Source: Antedon mediterranea
Lineage: Eukaryota; Animalia; Echinodermata
Length of the DNA: 64,000 nucleotides
NCBI RefSeq assembly: GCF_964355755.1
Contig: NC_092676.1
Span: 27,236,871-27,300,870, forward strand
Direction: 5' to 3'
Shown here: positions 3,523-60,700 of the stretch, in pieces
Position numbering within the stretch: the first letter of the stretch is position 1
How the letters are laid out: every line of letters begins with the position of its first letter
The notes under the pieces: generated by a model
Databases searched by the model: none
The model's input: the letters and a program-made list of their open reading frames with translations, nothing else
What the model was told of the DNA's origin: nothing
Program-made: the position numbers and the translations under genes

Positions 3523-4383
3523 TTAAAAATACGAATCTATATACATTTAAATTTAAAACAATTATATAAAATAATAATGATATTTCAACAATTTATTTAT
3601 AGGTTTGCTGTCTCAGTCAGTTTCTTTGTCTGTCTGCATAACAGTGGTTAGTCCTTTATTCTGATTTCTTTTATTTCAATAAACGAGAACAACATTTCTG
3701 CATGTAACAAAATAGAGTTAGGCTATATATTTTATGTTTACTATACTTAAACAAATGCATTAAATAATAGTACGGTATTGCAGTGTTGAACGCGTACAAT
3801 TTATATAAATATTAGGCCTAAGCCTTGTTGATCTGATCTGATATAGTATTGTAACTATGGACGTCTGTTTCCGAAATAAAAGTAAAATGAATGGAATGAA
3901 TGAGTATCATAGTATATCCAGACTCCAAAGCAATTAAATTATACACTACAGGTAACAGACGTACGCTATGCATATATAATGAGCAAGATGATAATATATG
4001 CAAATTGAAAATCATGAATGGGTTGACGTGTAGAGAAACACAGTATACCTCTAGGCACCGCACACCACTGCGCATACTTAAGTTCTAGGCCTACATAATT
4101 TAGCTTCTACCCATATATAAATATATTATTAAGGACATTATAGAGAATGTAGCCCCGTGGTAAAAAAATTGTGGTGATGTACAAGTCCCCGCTTGATGTG
4201 AATTGGTAATCAAAATGTCTGGTATACGATTTCCTTAACTTCCATCCATATGTAGAACCTTCTTTTTTGCTTACGTTGAAAATGGAATTCACAAAATGGT
4301 TAACATTGAGGTTTTAAGAGTGATGGGCTGATATACACTTAGGCCTATTAGTACGGTAATGATATACATTGGTCCGCACCTTA

Positions 4384-5165: not shown

Positions 5166-5614
5166 CTCTTACTTTCCGTTGGATTTCAAAACATGACGTA
5201 TGACGCTACCGTATGTGATAAGTTAGTGAACCCGCTGATGTTGTAATTAAGTGTAGGCTACAGCAATGAATACAACACTCTCCTTGTACTAAAATAAACT
5301 TGATGATAATGAAACTATAATTATTGCTACATTGTTAGTCAAATTTATCAGTCTTTCATACAGCGCTGGTATTCTAATTTCTTTGTTCCTATTTTACTTG
5401 CTGTTGCATGCTTATTGGAATAATTAGTGGAATAATTATTTGGAAATTGTTCCTTTTGGTTTCTAGATTATGCTTATAGTTGTTCACATTTTGAATGTGA
5501 ATAATAAATCGTTAAGTATAGGTATTAGTCTGATATGACTTTATAATGAATCTATTATTTCTCAGTTCAAAAAGTAGAAGTGTTGATTTTCCTATTATTT
5601 GTTATTTCCTACTA

Positions 5615-11387: not shown

Positions 11388-11563
11388 CAGTGGCGTAACG
11401 GCTATGAACGCTTACTGGCTAAACACAGGGCCACACAGCTTATTGGGGCCCAGAAAAAAAGTATGAAAATCTGTCGAAAAAAGCACGTCCGAGGCCTCCA
11501 GCGCTGTGAGGGCCACTTAGGATTCCTAAACCAGGGGCCTAAGGCCTCTGCGTTACGCCACTG
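11388..11563. mobile_element. hAT-like MITE
   Basis: Perfect 13-bp TIR CAGTGGCGTAACG/CGTTACGCCACTG; 8-bp flanks only partly similar. Confidence 0.75.
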
Positions 11564-29300: not shown

Positions 29301-30273
29301 CCTTTTCGATTTACATCCCAACCTGACCTACATTCTACTCTACTAGTTCATTTTACGACCACCTTGTTGTTTTTACTTTGTATAAAGAAACCTCTGTATA
29401 ACCCCTATTACTGTTGAAAGGTCTTGCTCTCTACGTATAAACTTGCTTTATGAAAGTGTTTCTTGTTTCATTTTAAGGCATGCTGCTCATATTGTCACAA
29501 CGGTTCTACTTATGGTGGAAAATATGAAGATTACATTTTTTGAAAATGTGTTCACTTCTGAACAAATGCGTGATTTAACTTTAAGGTTAGTACTTCTAAA
29601 TTAGAATCATGGTTTAAGCTCTGTCTACACTATCAAACTAGTGTGATGTGCCCAAATATGGTAGTGACATGCTTAAATATGGTAGTGACATGGTAGTCAT
29701 ATGACATCATGTCCATATATGGGAACTCACTTTTTTGTCCCATACAGTTTGATTGTGTAGACAGAGCTTATATGAATTGCAGGTAACTGCTAATTCCTGT
29801 GGAATTTTTCTTATTTAAATTCCCATTTAAAAAATTGCTATATGATGTTAACAAGATTGATGAATTAATATGATTACTACTTATCTTATCACCTCTTGAC
29901 TGATAGCAATAATTTCTATCAAACCACACCTACTTATGTGAAGCCACACCCATTTTGTTGTTATTGGCCATGTATACTTTTACACAATATATCTAAACAT
30001 TTGTACCTGTACCGATTTAATAGACTAAGAACAATGCACCCATTTTACATTTGCATATTTGACACAATTACTTATTGTTACATTTTCAGATATGGTATGA
30101 ATAAATCTGTTAAAACACTGTCTGTACACACAGATCATCATGCTAGTAAACCTGTGGAGGGTACAGGTCAACAAATGTATACACGAGGTCAAGTTACCAA
30201 TACAGATATTGTCCAATCGGTGGTGTCCGTCTGTGACATCCTGTTGGATGTAGCTGAGCAACCAAATTTACAG
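23347..30273 (+). CDS. MDN1: MDN1 exons 1-6, N-terminal domain
   Basis: Exons 23347-23451, 24892-25115, 25229-25301, 28583-28719 (WDWSVF), 29478-29585, 30090-30273; phases consistent. Confidence 0.9.
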
Positions 30274-33200
30274 GTAACTGCTAATTCCTATGTAACGATT
30301 AATGTGCACATTTTGCTTACTTCAATTCCCATATATATTTATGATAATAAATTGCCATGTGATGATAACAAGATTGATGACTTAATTTTGATTACTACTT
30401 ATCTTATCACCTCTTGACTGATGGCAAACAATATATCAAGCCACGCCTACTTATGTGAAGCCACACCCATTTTTTACTGGCCATGTGTAGGCATACTTCT
30501 ACCAAGCCACATTCACTTCTATTGAGTCACAATTGCTTTAACTGTACTACATTAATTACTATGATTATGTCAAATTTGGTATCTACTAGACCAGAAAGAA
30601 ACCACTAATTGCAGTCGCTTCAACAATGAAGAACTTGCGCAGCCTTGTCTTAGCCGTGTCTTCGTCAAGCCCAGTCCTGCTTGAAGGCCCTGTAGGCTGT
30701 GGTAAAACATCATTGGTAGAGTACCTGGCTGAGATGACTGGAAGATGCATTGGTAACAACCTGCTTAGAGTGCAGCTAGGAGATCAGACAGATAGTAAGG
30801 TATGATATATCTTTATATTGGGTAGTTTACACATAAATTCAGCATCAAATATATTGTCGGTATGTTTTATTACGTTTCTAAATTATTTTTTTCTTTCAGG
30901 CACTTTTAGGGACATACTGCTGTACAGACATTCCTGGAGAGTTTAAATGGATTGCAGGACCTTTAACACAGGTAAGCTAAATTTGTTGTGGTTAGGAAAC
31001 ACAATACCACATTACATTAAAGGTGCATGAATGAACTCTGTACAAAGTAATGATTGACATCCGTAAGTCACAAGTGCAAATTATGCAAATGATTTAAGAT
31101 TAATAGTGGCGAGTTTTTGTTTTTTTAGGCTGCTACCCTAGGACATTGGATTCTTTTAGAGGATATTGACTATGCTCCCATGGATGTTATATCAACCCTG
31201 TTACCACTGTTGGAGAGTAGATCACTAAGCCTACCAGGCCACGGTACAACCTTGAAAGCTGCTCCGGGCTTCCAACTTTTTGCCACTCAGAGGTAACAAC
31301 ATTCTGTAGATGGTATATAGAAATACTGGGCTCGCACTGGCCGATCGCCAAGTCGCCATGGGCGAAAACATTTCCAGATTGGCGAAAAATAAAACGGCTA
31401 CTTTAGCCATTTTGGCGATGACATATGATAAAATAGATAATCAAATAATCATTTTGGCGAAAGCATAAAGTCCAACTAAAAGGTCCATTTGTCGATCTTC
31501 AAGCATTTATTTTGTTCGTTATAATGTTGTTTACTTCAAGCTCCATTTTATTGCTTTTTGTGTTAGCACCCCTCTCCTACCACCAGGGTTTCCCACCTCA
31601 TCAATCTATCTAAAATGTGTTTCACTAAGGAATGAATTTTGCACAAGTATTGCATCTGGATTGCACATGTATAATCACTAACAGTGTTAATAGCAAAAGT
31701 TAATTGCTTTTAAATTAATCAAATGTGCTAAACATCCATTAAACAAACGGCTTGTTTAATTGGCTGATATTTATTTATTCTAAACAAACGAGTTAAGAAG
31801 CACTTTAAATTTTTACACAGGCTGGTAAACAGTGGCAGTGGTTTTGTACGACAGCAGCATAGTGATTCATCCATGCTGGATAGAATGTGGACTAGAATAC
31901 AGGTAGCGCCACTATCAACCCAAGAACTACATCAGGTGGGCTTTTTAAAGAATTTTTATGTGAAATACTACAGGCTTTATTGTGTGCTAAAGCAAGATAA
32001 AGGAGGGTGTAGTGTGTTGGATGTTCGACTTCTGATCGTGCGATCGAGGTTGAAGTCCAACTCTCGCCACATTGCTTGTATCCTTGGGCAAGATACTTTC
32101 CTTACGTTTGCCTCTCTGCACTCAGATGTATAAATGTGCACCCGGTTAGATCAAGACACAACTTTGTGCTGATTACTAGCTGCATTATGCGAGTATGTTT
32201 CCATACGCGTTTGATAAAAAAATGTGACTGGGGTAATAATGTTCAGCGCTAGAGGTTTCATTACATTAGGCGCTATTTAAATGCAGGATATTATTATTTT
32301 TAAATATTAGTAATGTTAGGGGTAAAGTAAGGTTGAGAATGTTATGCTACAATCGCCATCTTGAGTAAAAATATATTGGTTTTAATATTTTTTAGGTCGT
32401 AGTAGCATTATATCCAAAACTGAACAATGTGACGGACAAGCTCCTTGAAATCTATGGCTTAATATCATCAGGAGGACATCACGGTGAAGGGGACGCATCA
32501 GACGAAATGGAACGTCTTAATCTAAGCGGCCGTTTGTTGTCAACAAGAGATTTGATTAAGTGGTGCGACAGAATCGTGAAAGACTATGAACACGGTCAAT
32601 CCAAGACTGCAAATATGATATTTCTGGAGGTAAAGTTTTAAATTTTATATTTACTTTAAAAACACTCTTTGTTGCCGGCGCATACAATAATTACAGTTAT
32701 ATAGTCGGAATTTATTTGTCTTGGTTGGTTTGTCATTGGTCTTTTTTTTTCAGGCTTTGGATTGTTTATGTGCTTCGTTATCCAAGTCGTCAAAAAGAGG
32801 AAAGTTGGCCGAAATCATTGGAGCGAAGTTGAATATTTCAAAAGAAAAATCCAGTTTTTTTATGACTAATTACAAACCGTCATTTACAGTGGAGGAGAAT
32901 TTGTGCATTGTGGGAAGGACGACACTTGCCCGAATTCAGCACGATAGGATACAGTATCAACGGTAAGCTGTCGTAGGAGGATTTGAACCAAAGATTAAAA
33001 ATTACACCATTGTGCCACCATTCTATACAAATCAATTTTTTAAATATTTGTTAAAATTATATTAAATTGTTACTAGTGTTAAAACCAATTTTGTTATCCC
33101 TACAGAGCTGCAACTGCCAATTTCGCATTCACGCGCCACACGAGCGTTCTGCTTGAACGGGTCGCAGTTTGTATCAACAACAATGAACCGGTATTGCTGG

Positions 33201-36200
33201 TTGGGGAAACTGGTACAGGGAAGACGTCGTCTGTACAGTACCTAGCTGACCTCACAAACCACAGGTTAAAGGTCATCAATATGAACCAACAGAGTGACAG
33301 CGCTGATTTACTTGGAGGGTAAATAGATTTTTGTAAATATTATATTGAAGACCTTCCCCAAGTAATAAAACAAGTATTTGAAAAAAGTGAAAACTGTACT
33401 TACAATTTTAATAAATGTGATTTTGCAGATATAAACCCCTAGATATAAAACAACTTATCACGCCAATCCGCCAGCAGTTTGAGGAGAACTTTGTGAAGAT
33501 GTTCTCCCGCACTCACAATGAGAAGTTCCTTGGTCACATACAAACGTGTTACACCACTGGTCGCTGGTCAACTTTGCTCAAGTTGATGCTTCACAGTCAG
33601 CAGGCTTCCGTGAAGAGGTTTGAGACCAGCAAAGCCGAGAAATCCGCAGATATAAGAAAGACAGAGGACTCGCAAACTACAGCAAAGTTTTGGAGGGATT
33701 TGGGAGAGCGTATACAACAACTACTGATACAGATTAAACATTCAGAAAATATGCTTGCTTTTTGCTTTGTAGAAGTAAGTATTTTGACCAACTGTGTATG
33801 ATTACACAAGGATATTTCACAGCACATTTACTTTTTGTAAAGCACTGCCTACACTATCAAACTATGTGGGAAAAAAAATGTGATGTGCCCATAATGGACA
33901 TGATGATGTTGTAGCACTACCATATTTAAGTATATCACCACCATATTTTGGGCAAATCACACTTTTTTTGTCTAACTAGTTTGATATGTAGACAGAGCTT
34001 TATTCACCAAGCTTCTTTTTTTCCCTTCTTCTTGCTTAGGGAACATTGGTAAAAGCGCTGACCAACGGAGATTGGGTCCTGCTTGATGAAATCAACCTGG
34101 CAACTGCAGAGACGCTGGAGTGTTTGAGTGGTCTGCTGGAGAGTACATCTGGATCTGTAGTCTTAATGGAAAGAGGGTAAGAGAGAACAACATTTTCTCT
34201 TTCCTAAAAAATTAAGACTTTCCTTATTACGATAATTACAATTATGCGTTGATTAAAACTGTGTATAGGATGAACATTTTTTTGACTGAAAACAAATTGT
34301 TGAGCAGTAAACGTTCTGATACATTTTTTATTTGTTAATTTGTATTTTTGGAATTAAATTTGTGTACTTTAAAATTTTTTTTTTTTTTTTTATATAGCGA
34401 TTCAGCTCCAGTTGTTCGTCATAAGGATTTTCGTCTCTTTGCTTGCATGAACCCGGCAACTGATGTTGGCAAGAAAGAACTACCAATTGGCATACGAAAC
34501 CGGTAGATATTATAATATAATTTAAGTTTAAAGCTCTGTCTACACTATCAAACTAGTTTAACAAAAAAGGTGTGATGTGACCAAATATGGTAGTGATATG
34601 CTTACATATGGTAGTGATGACATCATGTCCATATGTGGGTACATTACATTTTTTTTACATAAAGTTTGATAGTGTAGACAGAGCTTATTACGGCAATAAT
34701 ACTAATAGATGAAATACAATCTGTTTTTAAAAAGTTGTGAATTTAAAAAAAAAATGTTGCAACCTACCACATGATGTTTTATAGATAGATGAAATTAATT
34801 GATTACTTATTATCTATCACCCTTGACTGATGGTATGAATAGATTAGAACAACTTATTTAGCCTTATCATTAAAACAATAAAAATAACTGCATTGAACTG
34901 ATATTTGTCATTTACTTTATATTCTTGTAACTTTTGTTTGTAGGTTCTCAGAATTTTTTGTTGATGAACTAGAAAATGATTCGGACCTGAGAATTCTTGT
35001 GAATAGCTACTTAAGTGGACTGAATGCGTCTGCCAAACAGCTTGATGGTATTGTGAGGTAATTTAAAGCTAATAAAGCTTCTTGTCAGAATCTATTTCCT
35101 TTCTAGTAATTCAAAGTATGCATGCTTCGAAAAGCGCTTTGTGAATTGTTGTGCAAGTTTTGCTTATTGTGCTTTTATTTCCGTTTAGATTTTACCAAGT
35201 CATTCGTTTAGAAGCTGAACAAAAGCTTACAGATGGCACAGGTCATCGTCCTCATTACAGGTAATTTTCAGGTCTGAACATGCTATATACAGGATACTGA
35301 GCTCGCCGTGCAAAGATAGGAACTCGTAACAGTCCTTTGATCTTATGTCTGGCTGCGACAAATACCAACATTACTGTACTATGTACATATTCTATGCGCC
35401 ACTTGGTCTGTTAAGGTCGCAGCCACAGATAAACCCTTTGATTTCTGGAGCTCAGCATCCTGTTGTACATATTCTCAGCAGTGTGCAATGTCTGTTAAGA
35501 TGCATGGATTGTGTCGCAGCCACAGATAAACCCTTTGATTTCTGGAGCTCAGCATCCTGTTGTACATATTCTCGGCAGTGCACGATGTTTAAAGGGCATA
35601 GAACTGATCGTGTTGCAGCCACAGATAAATCCTTTGATATCTGGAGCTCAGCATCCTGTTGTTAAATTGCCTTGCTACATACTTGGGGTAGTTCACTTGC
35701 TATATTTGGGGTTCATGCAAGAGCCAAGGGTTCTTGCTAAGTAAAGGCACTTTACACCACTATTATATCTCACTTAAATTTACTAATTTAGTATTTTGTT
35801 TACATTTTCTACAGTTTAAGAACTTTGTGTCGGGCGTTAAGATTAGCTGCCAGTAACCCTTACGGAAATCTTCTACGTTCCTTATACGAGGTACGGTAAT
35901 TTATTGGATACCACTAATGTTATTAAAATCAAAATAACATTTATCTTCTTCCTATAAGATTAAAGTGGAGCTACACTCAGACTTTCTCAGCTTATATTAT
36001 GTTTAAGTATGTTTAATTGAAAGTGATTACATATCAAAAACCAGGAAAAATACGGAAATATTTTCCAAAAACTCATTTCTAAAAAATCGGTCAGAAAATA
36101 GTGTTTAACAAATTACAGTTTTTCAGTAACTTAGGGGTTATTAGTTTACAATACGTCGCGAAACGCGTTACACTTAGCGACTGACGCGTTTTAGTCGCTG

Positions 36201-39200
36201 GTCAACGCATTGTGGAAATGTCTCCCCTTTGGTAAATTATGTGTCGAAAAATGGGGAATAAATTTTATACACACAATTAATACGATTTGTTTAGGCCTAA
36301 CTAATATTTCCGATAAGAATGTCAGTATAATTTACATGTAACCTCATGATTTTCACTGTACAACAACAGCATAATAATCTTATCAGATTGCTTTTAACTT
36401 TAAGCTAGGGCTAGGCCTAGCTAAGCCGTCTGCTCAGCCTAGCTAGCCTTGAATTTTTGTCTAGAGGCCTATGTATTCATAGGCATGGTCGTTTCGCCCC
36501 ATTTATCGTTCCTGGGTTTTCTCGCACATTAAGAATTGTGAAACACAAAATCCTATAGTATACAGAACAAGAGTAGTAAAGAGTAGTAAAGCGATGTGCA
36601 AGCTTAGACCTGACTGACTGAAAAGCAACTATTCAGGCACCCTATCATGGCCCATGGGTAGGCCAAGGTCGGGTGACAGCAAAACAAACTTCACTGCTGT
36701 CAGCCTAGCCTAGCTAGAGGCCAAGCCACTAAGCAGCATCGGTACATACCTACACTCTAGTAGTAGGCCTAGGCCTAGCTTTATTGAATATATAGCCACA
36801 TCTTTCTCAAATCTCGTTAAATTTGACATTTTAGTAATAGTCTCATAATCACATCATTACACTGTGAAACATAATAAGGTCACATTCAGAATGTTTTAAT
36901 ATACTTTTCGCCCGTTAAAAATAACATCGCGACAAAATAACAGATCGCCAGCTGCAGTGTAGTGTGATTGTGAAAAATGTCACGTGATCGTACTCCCTAG
37001 CAAAATAAAAAACCCAATTGGACCCGAACGGGGGAAAGTGTCTATTTACGCAAAATTGCGCAATGTATACGTGATAAAAATACCAGAAATAGAAAGATCT
37101 GGAAAAATTACATAAATATACATTTTACATTTTTTTTTTGGTGAAGAAATGAATTTTTTAGGATTATTCAAATATACCCCCCTTTTGCATGTAAAAGAAT
37201 AGGAAATTACAAGGTATCCCCCCAAAACGCAAAAAGGCGTGATTTTCAAGAAAATCGTACTCATTGAAAAAAAATTCAAAAAAATATGAAGTATAAGGGA
37301 TGATATTTTTAAATAATAGTTGAAATGTATGAAAAATAGTAATTTTCTGGGTGGAGCTCCACTTTAAAACAATAATAAAATAATGATTGAATTATGTTTT
37401 TTAAATATTAAAATTAGTTTGATGTGCTTGAAAATGATGACAAACATTCGCGCTTCGTATGAAATGTTATGATTATAACAACAATATTTCTTCACTAATC
37501 TTCTGATTCAAGCATACAAAATAACATTTAAAAAAGATCCTTGAAAATTACAAGGGGTTAACCAATTATGGTCTTGGAAAAAGAATTTTAAATGTGTAAC
37601 TTTCTCTCTTACTCTAGAGTTTCTGTCTCAGTTTCCTGACTCAACTAGACAGGGGGTCACATCCCAACGTGGAACAGCTGATTATCAAACATGTGATAGG
37701 TAAAGGAAATGTGCGTGGTATGTTAAAACAACCAATACCACCACCTGTATCTGGTCAGTGCAATAAGATAGAAGGTTATTGGATAAGGCTGGGTGATGTA
37801 GAACCTCTGGTGGCCCAAGACTATGTTTTAACGGCGTCTGTGAGGGCGAATCTGCACGATATATCTAGGATCGTCTCGGCAGGGTAAGAAAGGATCGTTT
37901 TAGAAACATTTACCACATGATGTTTTATAGATAGATGAAAATCTTTTATGATTACTCTTTATCTATCACCCATGACTGATGGTAAATTTTAAGTCTTCTC
38001 GTATTGCTATTGTCATGCTTGTATCGCCTACTATTTGTGTGCCATGTTGGACACTGTTATCCCTAGTTGTCAATAAAGAATAATAATGTTGGATGCGATT
38101 TAATCCTTAGAATGCAACGAAAAATGCAATTAAGCCATGGCCTTCAAACAAATTCACGACATTGCTTAAGTCTACTAAATTTTAATGGCAGTTTTCTCAT
38201 TTTTTCTGTAGGAGTTTTCCAGTTTTAATTCAAGGAGAGACGTCTGTAGGTAAAACAAGTTTAATCCAATGGTTAGCAAAAGCTACTGGTAACAGATGTG
38301 TACGAGTAAATAATCACGAACACACAGATCTTCAAGAGTATGTTGGTTTCTATGCGGCAGATGAAACAGGCAAACTGATTTTTAAAGAAGGTATGTTTGC
38401 ATCCAATTGTTAAGTATAGTTTAATACATCTTTCCTGGTAATTTAATTTAACATTTTGTATCACTTTTTGTACTTTATTTTAGGTGTTCTAGTTGAATGT
38501 ATGAGAAAGGGGTATTGGATTATTCTGGACGAGCTTAATCTAGCGCCCTCTGATGTTCTAGAGGCATTAAATCGGGTAAGCAATCAAATTATTAGATACT
38601 AAGACAACAGTCATAGGTAGTGCAAAGGGTTACACATGGGCATTGACACCACTGACAATATAGCATTTATCCCCATAGAATTTTTACCTTGTTTTCTTTT
38701 GAACTAGTTGTTGGATGATAATCGAGAACTATACATACCAGAAACACAAGACACCGTTCAAGCACACCCACAATTCATGTTGTTTGCTACCCAGAATCCC
38801 GCTGGCCAATATGGTGGTCGAAAGGTACCGTATACTTTACCATTTTGTTACTTTTAACTTGGATATGATGACAAACATTCGCGCTTCGAATGATATTTAA
38901 TGATTATAACATCAGTATTTTCTTCACTAATCTACTGATCCAAGACGTTTTAAAATAAAATAAAGTTGAGGAAAAGTGTATTATTTTATTACAAAAAGTT
39001 AAACAATTTTTTTATGTATAAATTGTAGGTGTTGTCGAGAGCATTTCGCAACCGTTTTGTTGAGCTTCATTTTGATGAAATTCCCAGCCGTGAGTTGCAG
39101 CAAATTCTTCATGATCGATGTGCACTACCAAAGTCGTACTGTATGAGGCTTGTAGCTGTTATGTTAGAGTTACAGGTACGAATTATTACTGTTGTGCTGT

Positions 39201-42200
39201 AGGCTGCCTTCACATTTAAGCTTCGTTCTCACTAGACACTATGTAAGGATGTAAACACAATACAAGCGTGCTGACCAATCACAAGCGACAGTTCTAACAA
39301 TCCACCGCTATTCAGTTCTCTCAATACTATTTTAAGTATTGCCTTATTTGTTTTTAGACACGCCGTAAGAGCTCTGGAGTGTTTGCTGGTAAACATGGGT
39401 ACATCACGTTAAGAGATTTGTTCCGGTGGGCTGAGCGATATAGAAAAGCAAGCGCAGATGATTCGGGCTTCCGTGATTGGGATCAACATCTGGCAGACAA
39501 TGGTTAGTAACTCGTATGTGTATAAAAAACTTTGCAGCTTACCCATTGTGATTTAGACCTAATTATTAGCACCAAAAGAAAAGTATTGAATGTTTGCATC
39601 TTTTATGTTTTAGGGTACATGTTGCTGGCTGGTAGAGTACGTCGTGCAGAAGAAAGGCTAGTTATCCAAGAAGTTATCGAAAAGCACATGAAACGTAAAG
39701 TCGCGCCAGCTAATCTGTACACGTTGTCCGAGAATACTTCATGCGTAACACGGTCCGTGTTGGATCAAGTAACAAGACAAACCGCAGAAGGGTTTTCACA
39801 CCTTGTGTGGACTTACAGTATGAGACGGCTTGCGGTGTTGGTTGGACAGGCGCTTGAATTTGGTGAACCTGTGCTGTTAGTGGGAGAGACTGGGTAAGAT
39901 GACAACATTCAGTTTGTCCTAATATATGCAATCTTGTAGATAAGAATTTGTGGCATTTCTGAATTATGTCTAATTTCGGGATAACCTCCATGTAAAGTTT
40001 CAATGCATATATAATAATATAATAATTATTCTAATTAATAATGATAAATACTGTGTAGTTACAGAATGAATTGTTTGCTTCATTTCAGATGCGGAAAGAC
40101 CACAATTTGCCAGCTGTTTGCTGCCCTCTCACAACAATCTCTTTATACCGTCAATTGCCACCTGCACACTGAATCGTCAGATTTTCTTGGAGGTCTGCGA
40201 CCTGTTAGACATCATGACGATACAGATGCAAGTAGTTCTCATTAGTAGCTTAAACATCTCACTTTTATCATAACAAGATTGTTGATTAGAATCTATATTT
40301 AAGTTATTGCTCTCTCAATATTAAATCATATTTTGCCTTTATAGGACAATAAGAAAAAACTTTTCGAATGGCGAGATGGGCCTTTAGTACTGGCCATGAG
40401 AGAGGGCGCTGCTTTTCTAATTGACGAGATATCATTAGCCGATGACTCGGTTCTAGAACGTTTGAACAGTGTTCTGGAAATTGGAAGGTCTCTGCTATTG
40501 GCTGAGAAAGGCAGTGGTGAAAAGTTTACAGATGAGACAGAGTTGATTAAAGCTGACGAGGGATTCCATGTGTTTGCAACGATGAACCCTGGAGGTGATT
40601 TTGGCAAGAAAGAGGTAAAATAATTGTTACATTACTGTTTAATTAATTTTACTTGTTGTATAATCTTGGAAATGATGATTGGATATTCGCGCTTCGTATG
40701 AAATTCAGTGATTTTAATATCCTTATTATTTCTTCACTACTTTTTCTGATCCAAGATTGTACTTCTATAAATAAAAGTGTCCTTAAACAATGGCTGAATC
40801 CTCAAAATTTGCATGATATGTAAACATATTAAATATGTTTTCTTTTTATACTTGAAGCTTTCACCAGCCTTGAGAAATCGCTTTACTGAAATCTGGTGCC
40901 CTCAACCAAAGGACCGTAATGATCTTGTCCAAATCATTGAGCACAACATCAGTGATGGAGTTCAGCTTGGCAACCAGGAAGATGGAGCAAGCGGAATTGG
41001 GAAAGGGATTATGACGTTCTTGGATTGGTTTACAAACACAGAAGCGGGGAAAAAGTAAGAGAAACTATAATTTGCAACATTTAATTTAATAAATGAACAT
41101 GGTAAATGAATAAACTTATTGAAATGATCATGTGTTGTATTGTTTTAGGTGTACTGTTAGTATACGCGACATCTTATCATGGGTCAATTTTGTTAATGTA
41201 AGCTGCAATACAGGGACTGCAAGACCTTTAGAAGCTCCAGATGCCTTTATTCATGGGGCATGCTTGGTGTTTCTAGACAGCCTAGGATCTGGTAAGTGAT
41301 TTGCTGAAGAAGACATAAAATCATTTCATTGCTACTCTTACTGAACTTGTAAATTGGCTTTTTTCAACCGAAGCTTCTTGCAATTTTAAATTGTTTTTTT
41401 CTTATAATTGGTATGTTTCAATATTTTTTGTAATACTAGTATAATTTATTCTTTAAGAACCTTGTTTAATTTTTAGGTACTAGTCTAGGGAGTGGAGTTT
41501 CTCTGAATGATTCTTATAATACATCACTGGTATTTCTTCAAAATGTGGTAGAGAAGCTATCAGGGTACCATGTGGATATATCAAGCTTGCTGATTGGTCC
41601 ACAGATTGGTCAGCTTAGAAATCCTATTACAGAAACTGTAGATATGTTTGGGATTGAACCATTCTACATTCACAAAGGTATGTGTTTAAACCATGTATTT
41701 CTAGAAAATGTATTATAAAAATTAATGATTTATGTAATGGTATTTGTTCTATGTACATTAAAATGTACAGTACATACTCCCAATACCGGACTCTCTGAAA
41801 ACTGGAAACTCTAAAAATTGTTCTTGAGGTCCAAACGATCCCAAATTAATTTTTACCATTAAAAACAGGGAAAATGTCACTGTGGTCATGTTACAAGAGT
41901 TGTCAAAAACAATTTGACAATATAGTCTATCTGATAATCTACTAGAAAGTAGGAGGCCTTTTGCCATTTTTCCCCTGACTGAAACACATTTGGAAGAACA
42001 TACTTTCTGGAAAACCAAACATATTTGGCCACCACAAGGCTGTCTGGTATTGGTAGAGTTGACTGTATTTTATTTTAAATTCTAGGACCTTTGATGATAG
42101 CCGGAAGCACGACTAGCTATGCCTTGCATGCTCCAACCACATCTCTGAATGCTGAGAGAGTCTTACGAGCCTTGCAGCTGCCTAAGGCTATCCTTCTGGA

Positions 42201-45200
42201 AGGTTCTCCGGGTGTTGGCAAGACCAGCTTGGTGTCTGCGTTAGCAAGAGCATCGGGACATCAGTTGGTCCGCATCAACTTATCGGAACAGACAGTAAGT
42301 TATATTCACCATTCATCATACATTAAAGGGAAACACTTGCACTTAAAATTTAAAAAAACTCTTTAAGTGAATACTAAGGGAAATACTTAAATATTTATTT
42401 ATTGAGTTAAGTGAAATACTTAAATATGTATTGAGTTAAGTGAAATACTTAATATATTATTTGTGTTTAGGACGTTACAGATTTATTTGGCGCTGATCTG
42501 CCGGTGGAAGGTGGCGAGGGCGGTCAGTTTGCGTGGCGTGATGGTCCCCTACTTAGCGCACTCAAGTCCGGACATTGGATTGTCCTGGATGAAGTAAGTC
42601 ATGTGATATTAATTAAAATTTTGATAAATGTTTCTTGGATAGGATGATATAATTGACCTGAAATTCATTAAGTTTATTCTTACTGAATTATGTAGTTTTT
42701 GGTTTAGTTTCTGATCCGAGAGAAAAATAATAAAACATTTATGTTTAAATATTATAGCATTGTGCCTCCAATTATTCTCTACTCGCTTCCCTTTAAAATT
42801 AATATAGTGTATAATAAATGTTGTGTTAATCTTTTACTTATAGTTAAATTTAGCATCACAGTCAATCCTGGAAGGCCTAAATGCTTGTCTTGATCACAGA
42901 GCAGAAGTTGTGGTTCCAGAGCTTGGCATGTCTTTCAGTGTTAGACCAGAGACCAGACTGTTTGCCTGTCAGAATCCACTGGTGCAGGGTGGTGGACGCA
43001 AAGGACTGCCAAAGTCATTTCTTAACAGATTTACCCAGGTAAGAAGAGTTGTGTATTTCAAAAATGTTGAGGACGTTTGTAATATGTTTTTGATAAATTG
43101 TAACAACCAAACCATTATAAAAGCTCTGTCTACACTATCAAACTACTGATATGCCCAAATATGGTAGTGATATGACATCTAATGATGTCCATATATGGGC
43201 ACATCACATTTTTTGGACCACATCAAGTTTGATAGTGTAGACAGAGCTTAATACTTTGTGGATATTTTAATTGTTTTGTTTTACTATAAATGGTTTTTTT
43301 TTTACATTTTTTTTTTCAGGTGTACATTGAACCTTTGACCTCCATGGACTTGCTCTTCATATCCTCTACTATGTATCCTCAAATACCAACCAATTGTTTG
43401 GAGAAGATGGTACAATTTAGTAATTTGGTAAGTTTGATTTCCCTGTGTGTTTATATAAAAATGATGATAAAGTCAAACTGAAATTCAATTTATTGGATTT
43501 GTGTGGTTTGGTTTAGTTTCTGATACAAAGCATTACTCAAAAATTAAGTTCAATTCGGTTTTAAGAGAGTTGACTATAGTGATTATTTAGTGATTATTTT
43601 GATTTTAACCTTTTTAAAACAGATTTACCAGCAGACCATGATAGATCGTGAGTGGGGTCAGCGTGGTGGGCCGTGGGAGTTTAATCTTCGTGATCTGTTT
43701 CGTTGGTGTGACCTCATGGTGAAAGATCATGTATTTAATCCAGGCCAACATATCTCGCTTATTTACTCGGATAGGCTACGAACGTCTGACGACAGAAGAA
43801 AGGTATGATAAAAAAAAATAACAGTAAATATACTAAAAACAACTGTTGCCCAGGTATTATAAAAATGTTTTAAGACTTTTGAATGCATGTTTTAAAAGTA
43901 TTTATTATTATTTATTAGGTTAAGAAGCTTTTTGAAGAACTGTTTGTGATTGGCCCTGAAAAACATGGCCACACCTACTTCTATGAATATTCAAGAAAGT
44001 TTCACATTACACCAAATACTGTACAGGTAAGGTGCTAGCATTTCTAAATGGACAAATTTTGTAATGTTTACGCTCGTAAATTATTTGAATTAAGACGCTT
44101 CTGGATCTTATGGAAAATTGATAATCTTTCGTTTGATTTAAACTTTTATTATCAATGTGTTAATTGTTTAGGTTGGTAATTCCGTTTTACCCCGAGGATC
44201 TACAGGACAACAACCAGTTAACTCTTTGACATCGCCAGTATTTCTTCTGCATCATGGTATGGATGCCCTTGAAGGAGTCATGAAATGTGTACAGATGAAC
44301 TGGATGGCCATTCTGGTAAGGTTACCTCTTCTGCAACTATCTTACAATTGTATACTATTGAAAGCAAACAGATTTGCAATTGCTTAGTAAGCATCAAACT
44401 TTATGCGACAAAAAATGTGATGTGCCCATATATGAACATGATGGTGTCATATCACTACCATATTTAAGCATATTACTACCATATTTGGGCACATCACGTT
44501 TTTTTGTCGCATAAAGTTTAATAGTGTAGACAGAGCATTATAAACTGTTAAATTTGTGCAATCCCTTATATTTCACCAGGTTGGACCAAAGTCCAGTGGT
44601 AAGACGTCATTGGTTCAGAGTATAGCAAGACTAACAGGGAACAAACTGCAACTACTGGCTATGAACAGTGCTATGGATACAACGGAACTATTAGGAGGGT
44701 TTGAACAGGTATGTATATGTTATATGTACTGCTAAACTAAAGCCTTGTTCACACTGGCTTTATTTAACTAAAGCTTTGTTTGCACTGATTTTATTTAAAT
44801 AAAGACAGTGCAAACAAGGCTATTTAACTAAAGCCTTGTTCTCATTGGCTTTATTTAACTAAAGCCTTGTTCGCACTGGCTTTATTTAACTAGAGCCTTG
44901 TTCGCACTGGCTTTATTTAACTAGAGCCTTGTTCGCACTGACTTTACTTTATCTTCAGTCCATGGGCTCATTCAGGCTTAGTTATTTACACGAGTAAGTT
45001 GGTTTCATGGGACAGTTATTACTAACAGTGATAGGTATGAAACCAACTTAACCAGGTAAGTAACTAACATGTACCGGATTAAAAAACATTACAATTCCTT
45101 GCTTACGTCTTGCAGGCCGATTACAATCGTCATTGGGATGAGGTTTACAGTAATGTGAAAACGGTTGTACATGCTGCAGTACAATCCTTACTGATTTTAA

Positions 45201-54725: not shown

Positions 54726-57700
54726 AAGAGATGCTAGTTAGACATTATAGTGTACCAACCCTATTTTATTTAGAAAATACAAGAACATGATTACATGCAA
54801 TAGAAATGGGAGTTAAAATTGTATAAAACTTAATTTTAACATACAAACATATTAAGTTAAAATATTGAAAAATACATATACATGATATTTGTGCCTAAGA
54901 ATAAATGTATTATAAATCTTGGTTCTTGTGTATATAAAAAAGCTTTTTCTTTTCTATTTCCAATTATGGGTTGAGAAAGGTCAAATATTCTTTGTTAGCT
55001 TGTTGATAGTCTTTAAGATAAGGTAATAAAAAGTTATATGCATACTATATTATTTGCATACTCTTCACATATCAACATTTCAAGCGATTAATAATTTGAT
55101 GTCAAATGGAGGTCGCTTTTATTAAAAACTGACTATTGTAGAATATTGTTCTTATGATAAATTAAAATAAAAGTGCGATAAATTTGGACATTTGTACAAA
55201 AAAATAACCCAAATTTTATGCAAGAGCTACATTTTATTAACAGTATGCTTGAAAAGTGAATATGATCTGAAAATAAGATATTTAAAAAATATTATAATAA
55301 TAAATATCAACTATTTTATTTATTATTTATTTCTCATTTTAGAAAGCTATAGAGAGAGAAATTTTAGAGAGGATATTTGTTTAGAATTAAATATGTTAAA
55401 AACATAAGGCTTCATTGTTAATAGAAATTAACTATTTATTCCAGGCCATATGTAAGCTGATCTGAATTTAATTAAGCTAATTGTTAATGCAACCATATCA
55501 CATTCCAAGAAAGAAGTATGTATGTTCTTTATTAACTATTATGTAACCAAGGCTAGGCTTGCTCATTTGCATATGAATGGTGCAATCTGATTGGCCAGTG
55601 TAAGCTTACAATATCAGTCAACTTGAGCACAAGGGAGGCATTCAGTTGGTTGGTTTCATGTGAAGAGGTTCTAGTGTTGCAGATTAGGTATTTGCATTGG
55701 AATGTAGGCTAGGCCATGGCTGATAAGATAAGGCTTAGCACAGTACTACAGGGATTGTCACTTCAAAGGGCAACAGGTATTCCTAGGCCTGCAGTTGAAT
55801 TTAATTGTGTTTGCTTGCTTCTTATATTGTACACTTTCTGCTAGTGTTGGGCCTTGCTTGTTTAGTATAACTATAGCTAACTACTGTACCTTTTCAACTT
55901 TATTGAAGGCTTAGACATTTTGTATTTTTAACTTTCTTTAACTTGTTTTTTTGTAGCTTACTACAGTTCAGTAGATTGGGTGTGTGATTGGGTGTGGTAT
56001 TGTGTTGTGGTGTATATTTATTTATATATTTATAATACCTTATTCCTTTAATTCAATCACTTATATTTCCAACCTGTTCACAAGTAGTTTAAAACTAAGC
56101 AACAGGTATTTTTTCAAGCTAGACTGAAATCCTAGGACATTGCTCTTGTTTGCCTCGGGCTGTTATTCTTGGGTCAGGTCACAGCCTTGGTAATTACTGT
56201 TGAATGCTTAGCTTTTGAATAGCTAAAGAATGTAGTGATTTATAGCTACTTAAAACTACTTTAATTTCATGCCACTTTACTTTATAAGTTTTCCTTGGCT
56301 TGTATTTTTTTTCACTAGGTTCCCTCGTGTTACATTGGATAAATTTTGAACTGCAATAAAAGATATTTTATATAACTATGAAATGATCAATTTATTTATT
56401 TATTCATCAATTTAATTTACTCTTTCTTAGGTTACCCAAGGAATTTGAAGTTATCGCAAGTCGTATCCACCAACAAATCGGTCGTGAAGATGAAAGTTCT
56501 CGCAACTTCGTCGGCATATGGCACTCATTCGGACATGTTGTTCCGTATAGTTCTACTCGAGTTGCTGAATCGGCGCAGCGTCTTGGTGTACTCGTAAAGT
56601 GTATGGACCTACAGCATTTGTCGAGGAATCTGCACACCAGTTCAGGGAGGAAGGCATTCGATGCATGCGTGGCGTTTCTCATACAAGATCATGGCAGTAC
56701 ATTCAGCAAAGTGGTTGAATTGTTACAGAAAGTTGAGCAATTGAATCACAGCCAGATAAATGGTAAATAATAAACAATAACCAATATATCTTTATTAATA
56801 TCTTGCGTTTAGGAAATCATAAAAAGCTATCGTTCTCCTTAAAGCACAACACAAAAATGTGGGTAAAGGAATTAACTTGTTTATAAAGTTCATTTAAATT
56901 TCCCAAAGTTGTTTAACTCAACAAATTTTTATGACCCAATAAAGAAAGCTTCCATTTAACATTTCGATTTCAAACTTATTTTGCAGATGATGATATTCTT
57001 GATGAACTCGACCAATTAGAAGCGCACCTGGTAAACTTTTCTTTGTATGAAAGACCACCAGAAGCTATGGCAGTGGATATCCCTATGGAAGTGAAAAGAC
57101 CAGATATTACCGACATGCATGGTAGGATGGAAGCAATTGTGGAGCTGTTGCCAATTACTCAGCATCTTGTGAATATAGCTGAGCAGTATTTGCTGTGTGG
57201 TGTATTTGATGAGGTTATCACAGGTGTACCTGCTAAGTTAGTGTCTTTGATTTATGACTTTGGCCTTAAGATGCCTCTTGAGGGTTCCCTGTTACAGTTT
57301 CCTTGCCCTTGTTTTTCCCATTTACATACATATTGGTATGTGATTTACCTTTTTAAGCTGGGTCTACACTATCAAACTTTATGCGACAAAAAAAATGTGT
57401 TGATGTCGTATCACTACCATATTTGGGCACATTATACTTTTTGATAGTGTAGAAAGGGCTTAAAAATCATCTGGTATCGCCCTCAACACTAACTGTTCTC
57501 TGAATTATCCTGTTATTTAGCATTAACTATTCTTAAGATCATGCAATTGAAGAATTTTCGGAGTCTTTAACGCCATGGAAGCCATGCTCAACAAGTCCTG
57601 TCTATTGAGTTGCAGGTCATGATGGGTGCCAGTACTGAAATTTCTACCAAGTATTGCACTTTTCATGGCCTGTGACTTATAGGCCTCTCTTCTACCTACT

Positions 57701-60700
57701 AAATCTACTGCCACTGCTGCTAGTTCTGGAGGTCATGTCTTTTGCCAATACTAATTAGATAAGTATTGCACTGGACCTGGCCTTCAGAATTGTGGCTGCA
57801 ATCAACCAATGCTACAGTTATTCCGAGTGGTTTAAAGAATTAGGGCTGCAATCAACCAATGCTACAGTAATGCTGAGAGGTTTAAAGAATTAGAGCTACA
57901 ATCAACCAATGCTACAGTTATGCCGACTGGTTTAAAGAATTAGGGTTACAATCAACTGTTGCTAAGTACAGTTATGCTGAGTGGTCTTAAGAATTGAATT
58001 GCAGAGGGTGGAATACAGTGAACTGGCTAAGCAGTTCTTTAGGTCTTGAGGGGTGCAAATCTGCTGGTATTATAGCTCAGAATTGCACTTCTCCCGGCCT
58101 AGAGAATCCAGTCGTTGCATCAAATTCCACGGTAGCAGATTATTCATATGGAGTCATAGAAAAAAATCTATTGATAAAATAAAAACCTTGATCAATTCTT
58201 GAATCTGAACATGGTCATTGCTTGAAGTGCGCAATTTCTAACCATATTTATAACCACTTTATACCCTAAATATAATTTATTGTACTGTATATTTAGGTAT
58301 GATGGTGAACTCGAATGTCTACTAGACTACAATACTGAACCCGGCCTCGCCACACCAACCCAGCAAATGCTACTACAATACATGTGCACAACAGACCGAG
58401 ATTACAATCTACTTGCTCCAAGAATCTCGCAAGCCTACATGCACTTTACCCAGAATGCAATCTGGCAGGCATCTACCACCCAAGTTAATATGTGGTTGTC
58501 ATGGAGATTAGGGGAACATGAGGATGAAATGGCAGAGGAATTGTGGTTTAAAGTAAATATGGGGATTTTGTTAAAAATCCAATAAATTATAATTTACTTA
58601 TTTTTTGACTGCAGAAGAGGCAGAATGAGGGTTTTAAAATAATCCCCTTTTTAGTTTTGCCGACGGCTTTCATTGACTGCATAACTAGAATAAATATTTT
58701 GTTAAATTGATCCAATTTATACAACACTAGAAAAACTAAAACGAGAGCTACCCTTAATACTACAGTACCGTAAATCTTCAAATAATAACCCACTACTCTA
58801 ATAGTAACCTCCCTTCTAACAATAACCCCCTTCTAACAATAACCCATAGGGGTTACTATTCGAGTCACAAAATTATTGACAAAATGATTGGTTGTTTTTG
58901 ATGCACTAATATTTTGAAATAAGGAGATAATGCATGTTGATCTCGGGAGTGGGAGAAGATTAAGTGTTTTTGAGTTCAACCAAATTTGTTTATTCGTACA
59001 GTTTTATTATTTTGCTATGAGTTGCTGACCGAAAATGTTGGGTGTGTTACTATTTTCAGGTGCCTAATTTAAGATTAGTAATAGTAACCCACTACTCTAA
59101 TAGTACCACTTCTGATAGTAATTTCACCCAAAATTCACAAAAATACTTACAATGCAAATTAATCTCAAAATAATGAATTTTAGGGGAGAAGCCTTTTACA
59201 TTCACCAATCCTGTCTAGCTGCTTATTTAAATTACTTGGACCTGAAAAATTTACCAGTGCTGCCAACATGGCCGACAAATCAATTGGGACTGTATCTCTG
59301 TGGAAGTATCAAGAAAAGACTCAACAACTGACGACCATAAAGAGTCTGCTATGGGAGTGCTCTGGGATGATGTCTTCTGGTGAGAGACAGCAGAGGTAAC
59401 ATACTTATTGTGGCTTACAAATTATTGAAATGAAGCTCCACTTTCTCTGTTTAAAGATGTATTGTTCAAATCAACCAAAAACCCATTGACGTCCAGTCAA
59501 TTTTACTTATTTTTTTGCTTTAAATAGGTGAATAATTTGTTTTCGATCCAGTTTTTATTCAAAGCGAATACAGTAACTGTGTGACATTAAAGCCCCCTTC
59601 CCTACGTTTTTAAGATCTAATTTAAGATCACAAACTATATTTAATTTAAAAATAATACTATATGGTCCTATTGCGATAACTTTTTTCGTCTTTAAACGGT
59701 TAAAAATGTGAAATGGAAGACTCTTAACTTTTCAGCGAAATTACCGGGTTTTCCCCAATTTGTATCAACTGGTCTGGCAAAAATAGAAAGACAATTAATG
59801 CAGCAACTATACAACGTCAGGCTAGGTATATAGCTAGCGTATGATGTTCGTACGTTACCAATGTTTACCAGCTAGGCCTACAAAACTAAGCCTAGCTAGG
59901 CTAGGCCTAAGACCGTTGCGAGCTACTTAGGTAGTGCATAGTTTCTCACTTTTTATCATAATTTACCATAAAACGTACATTTAAGAAAAGGAATGACATG
60001 GTTTAATGTTTTTAAAGTGATATATATGTATTTTTTTCCAAAAAACGTCCAAAATTGCAGGGAAGGGGTCTTTAAAAATGGCATATTCAACAAAAATATC
60101 TTTAATTAAAAGTGATTACATAAAAAAAACCTAGGAAAAATGAAAAATTTGCTGGAAAAAAAACCCCGTTTTCCAATACTTAACATTGTCGGTGAATCCG
60201 TTTTGCTCGTTGGTTAACACGTGTAATTTCTTCCTATATTGTCGAAATCGCGAATCAATGGAATGGTTTTACAATAATAGTAAATATGACCTTGAAACTA
60301 AAAGTTAATAAAACAAACAATTTTACCAACTTTTTAATTACTGTATGTATACACAGTATATGCTGTATAATAAAAGAAGTGTGAATTCTAAACTTAGCTT
60401 TTGTCTTTTACTGTCATCAAGACGCAACAACAGAAAATGAAAAAAGATATGACAACAATGCTCCATAGTAAATATTGATTGCTTACAAAACCTACAGGAG
60501 TAACTAATATTGAATAAAAACTATAATATTCATCTGAACTTCAGAAACAATAAATTAGTAATTATTTTATTATAAACAATAAGTTAGTTGTGTGTGATTA
60601 ATTAGTTACTTAATTACCCACTGAATGTTATATAATGGTTTATTTTTATCAAGAAAACTAATCAAACCAGAAATAATGGTATACTTGTATTCTGTAATTT

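Follow-up and report, generated by a model that had tools for sequence, protein, structure and literature searches.

Two U83/U84-family box C/D snoRNAs in midasin introns of Antedon mediterranea and a hypothesis for their role at helix 34 of 18S rRNA

Introduction

What preserves the guide sequence of a small nucleolar RNA (snoRNA) that has no known product? This question is raised by a 64,000-nucleotide stretch of the genome of the echinoderm Antedon mediterranea (NC_092676.1, positions 27,236,871 to 27,300,870 of the forward strand; hereafter 'the window'). A preliminary description, made from the letters of the sequence, had pointed to two box C/D snoRNA units in introns of the midasin gene (MDN1) and had likened them to the mammalian RNAs U84 (SNORD84) and U83 (SNORD117). 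It proposed that a guide conserved between mammals and this invertebrate, in different host genes and with both of its variants retained, implies an ancient and still unidentified target or function. Herein we report that both units belong to the U83/U84 family, and we evaluate the proposal that their guide contacts 18S ribosomal RNA (rRNA) and helps to keep helix 34 open during assembly of the small ribosomal subunit.

Two further members of the U83/U84 family

Both units were located as described on the + strand (Table 1). We refer to them as the T copy and the A copy after the base at position D+4 of the guide upstream of box D. When searched against Rfam, the T copy matches RF00137 (SNORD83) at 51.1 bits (E 2.2e-7) and the A copy at 53.9 bits (E 3.8e-8), both above the gathering score of 35 bits for this family. 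Each copy carries C, D', C' and D boxes together with a terminal stem, lies in the sense orientation of its host intron, and has the same C box (ATGATGT) and D box (CTGA) as the other. In addition, a 16-base pattern comprising guide and box D, allowing up to two mismatches, has two matches in the window versus 0.18 expected. The T and A copies are real, well-supported further members of the known U83/U84 snoRNA family, in agreement with the identity first proposed for them. The members of RF00137 are distinct from the RPL3-hosted SNORD83A/B (RF00593), which guide modification of 18S Am468.

The host gene differs from that of the mammalian RNAs, as had been claimed. SNORD84 and SNORD117 both reside in DDX39B, whereas the host here is midasin, as evident by exon 37618-37884, for which midasin is the only match in the PDB, and by exon 40348-40611, which matches midasin there with an E value of 1e-70. 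Exons of the gene also match the Pfam families AAA_5 and AAA_lid_5. In a comparison with 14 named midasins, a panel of non-deuterostomes, most well-aligned exons were closest to Lingula and molluscs, ahead of arthropods and Trichoplax; the summed scores were uninformative, and one linker exon matched no relative. A spliced contig (run X1, record 1) spans positions 30588-39820 and skips the 328-nucleotide (nt) GT..AG intron that carries the A copy. Being a spliced run, X1 contains no contig across the A copy, which is neutral as to expression of the snoRNA. The intron of the T copy (approximately 34503-34943) was placed from GT/AG dinucleotides and open frames, not from a listed splice joint.

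The 17-nt guide of the T copy is identical at all 17 positions to that of mouse Snord84, and the guide of the A copy is identical at all 17 to those of mouse Snord117 and human SNORD117. Human SNORD84 departs from the T-copy guide at position 16 only, where it carries C. Moreover, D+4 is T in mouse and human SNORD84 and A in mouse and human SNORD117, and thus both the T/A assignment and the deep conservation of the guide that had been proposed are correct. A guide that is unchanged between mammals and Antedon despite the change of host indicates strong selection on an RNA without a known product. The claim of ancient conservation in an invertebrate is likewise right, but invertebrate homologues were already implied by the entry 'Deuterostomes' given as the range of this family in a 2016 supplement table (PMC4914119).

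Outside the guide, the Antedon copies share with SNORD84 and SNORD117 the ATGATGT C box, a CCA/TGG terminal stem and the presence of T and A paralogues in one host. In contrast, their 5' half is unrelated and AU-rich, and the GC-rich central stem-loop of both mammalian RNAs is absent when the sequences are compared by eye. The T and A copies are identical over their first 30 nt and at 66 of 75 aligned columns overall (88%), whereas their flanks are not alignable. Because the two copies are closer to each other than to either mammalian RNA and lack the mammalian stem-loop, they probably arose from a separate duplication that underwent the same T/A change, or have been homogenised; we consider one-to-one orthology with U84 and U83 unlikely. 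Therefore, although T and A variants are indeed both present, it is doubtful that they were retained, and the shared pair is more likely due to recurrent change at a single tolerant position of the guide than to inheritance.

The A copy shows no changes over 73 nt in three contig sets from one other sample, while the covered part of the flanking intron, about 75 nt, has six changed places in the same sample, five of them clustered. This difference weakly supports constraint on the snoRNA. A scan of metagenomes for homologues gave 24 matches, none with a C/D terminal stem on inspection by eye, and Rfam searches with 20 of these showed no SNORD83 match. We took 79 matches of viral contigs to a looser guide pattern as chance. 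The guide motifs were also not matched in a Drosophila supplement, which apparently lists box motifs rather than whole snoRNAs and is therefore uninformative on flies.

Predicted pairing of the conserved guide with 18S rRNA

In light of the literature, the statement that the target is still unidentified goes too far. In the 2016 supplement, 18S position 1320 is a selected conserved prediction for human SNORD84 and SNORD117, with an interaction conservation index (ICI) of 1.39 against a threshold of 1.0 (PMC4914119). Furthermore, 18S binding in mouse and human is backed by a 2025 study employing chimeric enhanced crosslinking and immunoprecipitation (eCLIP), whose tables hold six significant rows for SNORD117, all on rRNA, of which five are on 18S and one is on 28S (PMC11863803). 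The mouse Snord117 peak on 18S covers 45S positions 5302-5359, which correspond to 18S 1295-1352 (58 nt) when numbering is anchored on Snord33 (U1326 = 45S 5333), and it accounts for 33% of the FBL chimeras of this RNA. The matching 18S region was recovered with three human baits for human SNORD117 (PMC11863803). Both a prediction and a chimera peak at the U83/U84 site on 18S are already in the literature, whereas the function is not, and to this extent the preliminary description was right.

We scanned the two Antedon guides against 6,226 nt of stand-in rRNA from eukaryotic contigs of GTDB assemblies, made up of a plant-like unit and a fragment that we assigned as animal-like. (GTDB assemblies often include eukaryotic 18S or whole ribosomal DNA contigs; we recorded at least 47 primer matches, mostly to 18S.) Without gaps, the best of 17 sites for the A guide is 18S 1318-1328, with 11 base pairs (bp) that include three G.U wobbles and a predicted energy of -15.8 kcal/mol, and 4 of 200 shuffled guides perform as well. 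For the T guide, the first of 21 sites is 18S 1320-1328, with 9 bp including two G.U wobbles. The 9-nt core of the 18S site is intact in 28 of the 39 primer-fetched loci that hold this region. The preliminary description had looked for a perfect complement, whereas the predicted duplex at 18S 1320-1328 relies on G.U pairs. No good or common rRNA site emerged for the D' (5') spacers of the units in the same stand-in rRNA.

The two variants are predicted to treat U1319 differently. The A at D+4 pairs with U1319 in the A-copy duplex, whereas the T at D+4 in the T-copy duplex bulges U1319 and then allows pairing with 1315-1318. This difference would explain why D+4 is the variable position between paralogues in both lineages. 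At the other end, the guide tail (positions 14-17) could pair with 18S 1332-1335, stopping just before C1336-C1337-G1338, and the C at position 16 of human SNORD84 would convert a G.U pair at this tail site to G-C.

Several observations weigh against a functional contact at this site. The scan was carried out after the eCLIP peak was already known, and shuffled sequences often perform as well as the real guides: 55 of 200 for the T guide without gaps, 27 and 31 of 100 for the two guides in gapped duplexes, and 185-281 of 300 for the T and A guides by edit distance. The 18S core accounts for guide positions 5-13 only, and pairing of the tail with 1332-1335 costs +1.6 to +1.7 kcal/mol. Snord84 has no significant rows in the eCLIP tables, and the single 28S row for Snord117 (mouse 45S 11459-11501, just 5' of A3380; Table S1, PMC11863803) lies on the other subunit RNA. 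This 28S peak may come from the D' spacer of Snord117, which is not conserved here. Finally, the closest paralogues in midasin, described below, fit 28S far better than 18S.

Because the computed 18S match is weak when taken alone, the weight of the argument rests on its agreement with the 58-nt chimera peak. On balance, we favor, with a probability of approximately 0.58, the reading that the conserved guide pairs through G.U wobbles with 18S 1320-1328 and serves as a non-methylating chaperone that opens helix 34 during 40S assembly.

A probable chaperone rather than a methylation guide

In the proposed mechanism, the D-box guide would engage 18S 1320-1328 with G.U wobbles, and we infer both this binding and expression of the RNAs in Antedon. 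The bound snoRNA would then chaperone the helix 33/34 strand, keeping the 5' strand of helix 34 open while the 40S subunit is assembled. Nucleotide G1320, which faces guide position D+5, would be left unmethylated. The likeliest output of the opened helix, a more tentative step, would be presentation of C1337 to NAT10, as occurs with yeast snR4.

Alternatively, U83 and U84 might be ordinary guides that methylate 18S G1320 incompletely, or only in certain tissues or stages, so that the product has been missed. The guide does sit immediately next to box D in the canonical arrangement, its D+5 residue, C, facing G1320, exactly this position was predicted by the 2016 pipeline (PMC4914119), and the founding paper (Jady and Kiss, 2000) calls these RNAs methylation guides in its title. 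Yet we consider this role improbable. A table of 2'-O-methylated (Nm) positions for fly, human, mouse, yeast, Arabidopsis, Xenopus and Dictyostelium (Antedon is not among these seven species) has rows for 1317, 1319, 1326, 1328 and 1336 but none for 1320, which makes binding without methylation most likely. The RNAs were still classed as orphans in the 2025 study, which included RiboMeth-seq and in which the novel eCLIP sites have a low mean methylation score of 0.34 (PMC11863803). The T-variant duplex, moreover, has a bulge between D+4 and D+5. A methylation guide would be expected to form at least 10 bp over D+5; with the stand-in rRNA the A copy forms 11 bp, three of them G.U, and the T copy 9 bp ungapped.

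The view taken in the preliminary description can be restated as a guide for some non-ribosomal RNA (tRNA, snRNA, mRNA or spacer) with a near-perfect complement, the 18S contact being incidental. This next alternative would account for the preservation of all 17 guide bases, including U residues that would be free to become C if they faced only G, and it accords with the gapped 18S energies that do not beat shuffles. It is nevertheless unlikely, given that the significant SNORD117 rows fall entirely on rRNA in a study that also mapped snRNA, tRNA and the genome (PMC11863803).

A possible link to acetylation of C1337

The last step of the chaperone mechanism leads to a more specific and more tentative idea, namely that U83 and U84 guide formation of N4-acetylcytidine (ac4C) at 18S C1337 in helix 34. 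Yeast snR4 guides 18S ac4C1280, the equivalent of human C1337, and its element GS2 pairs with 1264-1271, equivalent to human 1321-1328. An internal element predicted to pair 5' of the CCG, as expected of an acetylation guide, is present in U83/U84, whose predicted 1320-1328 footprint contains that of GS2, and the SNORD117 eCLIP peak takes in both this footprint and C1337 (PMC11863803). Like snR4, U83 and U84 are box C/D RNAs with no known methylation product and with a predicted footprint that overlaps the guide sites for Um1326 and Gm1328. GS2 overlaps the sites of snR40 and snR55, just as the SNORD117 chimera peak coincides in part with those of SNORD32 and SNORD33. The latter RNAs (snR40 and snR55 in yeast) bind the same G-rich stretch of 18S, and mouse Snord33 likewise uses a G.U pair (U opposite G1327), but they form 13-nt duplexes and have Gm1328 and Um1326 as known products.

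The human counterpart of snR4 was described as 'yet to be identified' in 2022, two papers of that year leave open whether a snoRNA places ac4C in 18S helix 34 of animals at all, and a June 2026 paper names, in its account of human guides, only that for C1842 (SNORD13). The existence of two redundant paralogues would explain why a C1337 guide has escaped detection.

Other observations argue against acetylation. GS1 is essential in yeast snR4, but the units here carry no equivalent 5' element (for 1343-1347), as evident by the lack of both an extension past the terminal stem and a conserved match in the 5' half. The units are only about 72 nt long, their guide lies directly upstream of box D in methylation-guide geometry rather than in an internal loop, and sequence homology to snR4 was not found. 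In the main text of open-licence papers, we found no link of SNORD84 or SNORD117 to acetylation or of U83/U84 to NAT10, which also counts against the final step of the chaperone mechanism. The cited literature further includes PMC5464676, PMC9226516, PMC11014333, PMC9670809, PMC12848939, PMC4696412, PMC3349704, PMC10324135, PMC8351944, PMC13752856, PMC13433802 and PMC7212295. Animals may even need no guide at C1337. In C. elegans, helix 34 is not acetylated.

The objection from the missing 5' guide is weakened by dipteran SNORD13 (Or-CD1), which has a terminal stem but no 5' element and looks like a canonical intronic SNORD, yet guides ac4C in helix 45; the fly RNA is active with the internal element alone. 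The internal element of mouse Snord13 ends right before CCG, as the U83/U84 tail would at G1335. However, the Snord13 element matches the stand-in 18S perfectly over 15 nt and is set back from box D, whereas the CCG-proximal part of U83/U84 amounts to four weak pairs past a 3-nt bulge.

We therefore regard an acetylation role as possible but doubtful. No firmer is the fuller proposal that U83/U84 are the missing animal guide for C1337, acting as a single-element counterpart of snR4 in the form of a redundant pair, with a duplicate in Antedon that has been retargeted to 28S. The link to helix 34 acetylation is a testable hypothesis newly raised here, not a result. Its value is that candidates for acetylation are narrowed to a site next to C1337, and if the idea fails, the Antedon RNAs remain further members of a known family.

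A divergent paralogue pair and a predicted site on 28S rRNA

Two additional units that score below the RF00137 gathering threshold lie upstream of the T copy (Table 1). This divergent pair is a local duplication with similar flanks, and the 5' splice-site region at about 29781 is repeated as well within the duplication that holds paralogue 1. An alignment of the pair with the T and A copies agrees at 51 of 85 columns, and the guide of the pair corresponds to the T guide with two inserted bases.

The divergent guide forms 19 bp with one bulge at a 28S site (-22.8 kcal/mol in the plant-like stand-in), a match equalled by 1 of 100 and by 0-1 of 300 shuffles in separate tests. The energy is -18.0 in a second stand-in and -10.1 in a truncated animal-like stand-in, and this variation means that the result depends on the 28S sequence of Antedon itself. 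We dropped the possibility that the pair uses the same 18S site as the T and A copies, which ranks 10 of 38 with 185 of 200 shuffles as good. With Snord111 as the basis for numbering, position D+5 of the divergent guide is inferred to lie some nine bases to the 3' side of human Gm3944, and among the rows listed in the cross-species Nm table there is none for human 3952-3954. We predict that the divergent pair guides a lineage-specific methylation near human G3953, and the comparison of guides reads as a duplicate of a U83/U84 gene that has been retargeted to 28S. If so, the locus would illustrate on a small scale how a guide RNA can switch from one target to another.

The strength of this 28S match raises the question of whether 28S just 3' of human Gm3944 (approximately 3950-3970) is the conserved partner of the entire family through a bulged duplex, with the divergent pair having improved an ancestral guide. 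Such a site would also employ the conserved tail, which takes no part in the 18S core. We find this explanation rather implausible, since the T and A guides reach only -13.7 and -11.8 kcal/mol there, weaker than on 18S, and the three-edit 28S match of the T guide is at chance level (281 of 300 shuffles). Snord117 has no peak near mouse 45S 11731 in the eCLIP tables (PMC11863803), and the C at position 16 of human SNORD84 suits G1334 of 18S but mismatches an A of the 28S site. Lastly, the copies could influence the splicing of their own host gene in cis, a role suggested for mammalian SNORD84, which is listed among snoRNAs that fold with the host intron. We regard this as highly improbable because a cis role cannot explain an unchanged guide in a different host gene.

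Small RNAs and repeats in the midasin introns

Table 1. Positions in the window of the snoRNAs, their host gene and neighboring features.
Feature	Position	Strand	Basis or remark
Box C/D snoRNA, SNORD83 family, T variant (as SNORD84/U84)	34766-34835	+	RF00137, boxes, stem
T-copy boxes	C 34771-34777; D' 34789-34792; C' 34799-34805; D 34827-34830	+	plus terminal stem
T-copy 17-nt D-box guide	34810-34826	+	T at 34823; core 34814-34822
Box C/D snoRNA, SNORD83 family, A variant (as SNORD117/U83)	37912-37984	+	RF00137, intron splicing
A-copy boxes	C 37917-37923; D 37976-37979	+	
A-copy 17-nt D-box guide	37959-37975	+	variable base A at 37972
Divergent paralogue 1	29837-29908	+	RF00137 29.0 bits, below gathering; alignment
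Divergent paralogue 2	30354-30426	+	RF00137 24.4 bits, below gathering; same 20-nt guide as paralogue 1
Midasin (MDN1) exons, AAA-ring region	30588-43149	+	spliced contig, Pfam, PDB; gene extends on both sides
Three-copy C/D snoRNA	37428-37512; 38859-38944; 40666-40755	+	midasin introns
Three miR-92-family hairpins	57606-58107	+	apparently in a midasin intron
Short interspersed element	~29614-29760; 33873-33907; 34527-34690; 44362-44537		midasin introns
Imperfect tandem units	35270-35670		intronic; at least three units of ~100 nt

Midasin is a dense host of small RNAs here, carrying seven C/D units, five of which were absent from the preliminary description, together with a miR-92-family cluster that is apparently intronic too. 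Another of the C/D snoRNAs is present in three copies with weak matches to Rfam ceN30 and snoU36a, both below gathering scores. Its D' guide is complementary to 28S immediately 3' of the position bound by SNORD36. A conserved element that matches the SNORD36 site proper is separated from box D by about 7 nt. Given this spacing, the element may provide accessory pairing rather than serve as a guide.

The three hairpins of the miR-92 family, a bilaterian marker that places the animal among the bilaterians, score 56.5 (above gathering), 32.6 and 30.5 bits, and two of them have unusual 3' halves. The introns also contain several copies of a high-copy short interspersed element whose ends match from copy to copy and whose contig depth is thousands-fold over background; one copy precedes the T snoRNA by about 75 nt. 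The imperfect tandem units are likewise high-copy in the genome.

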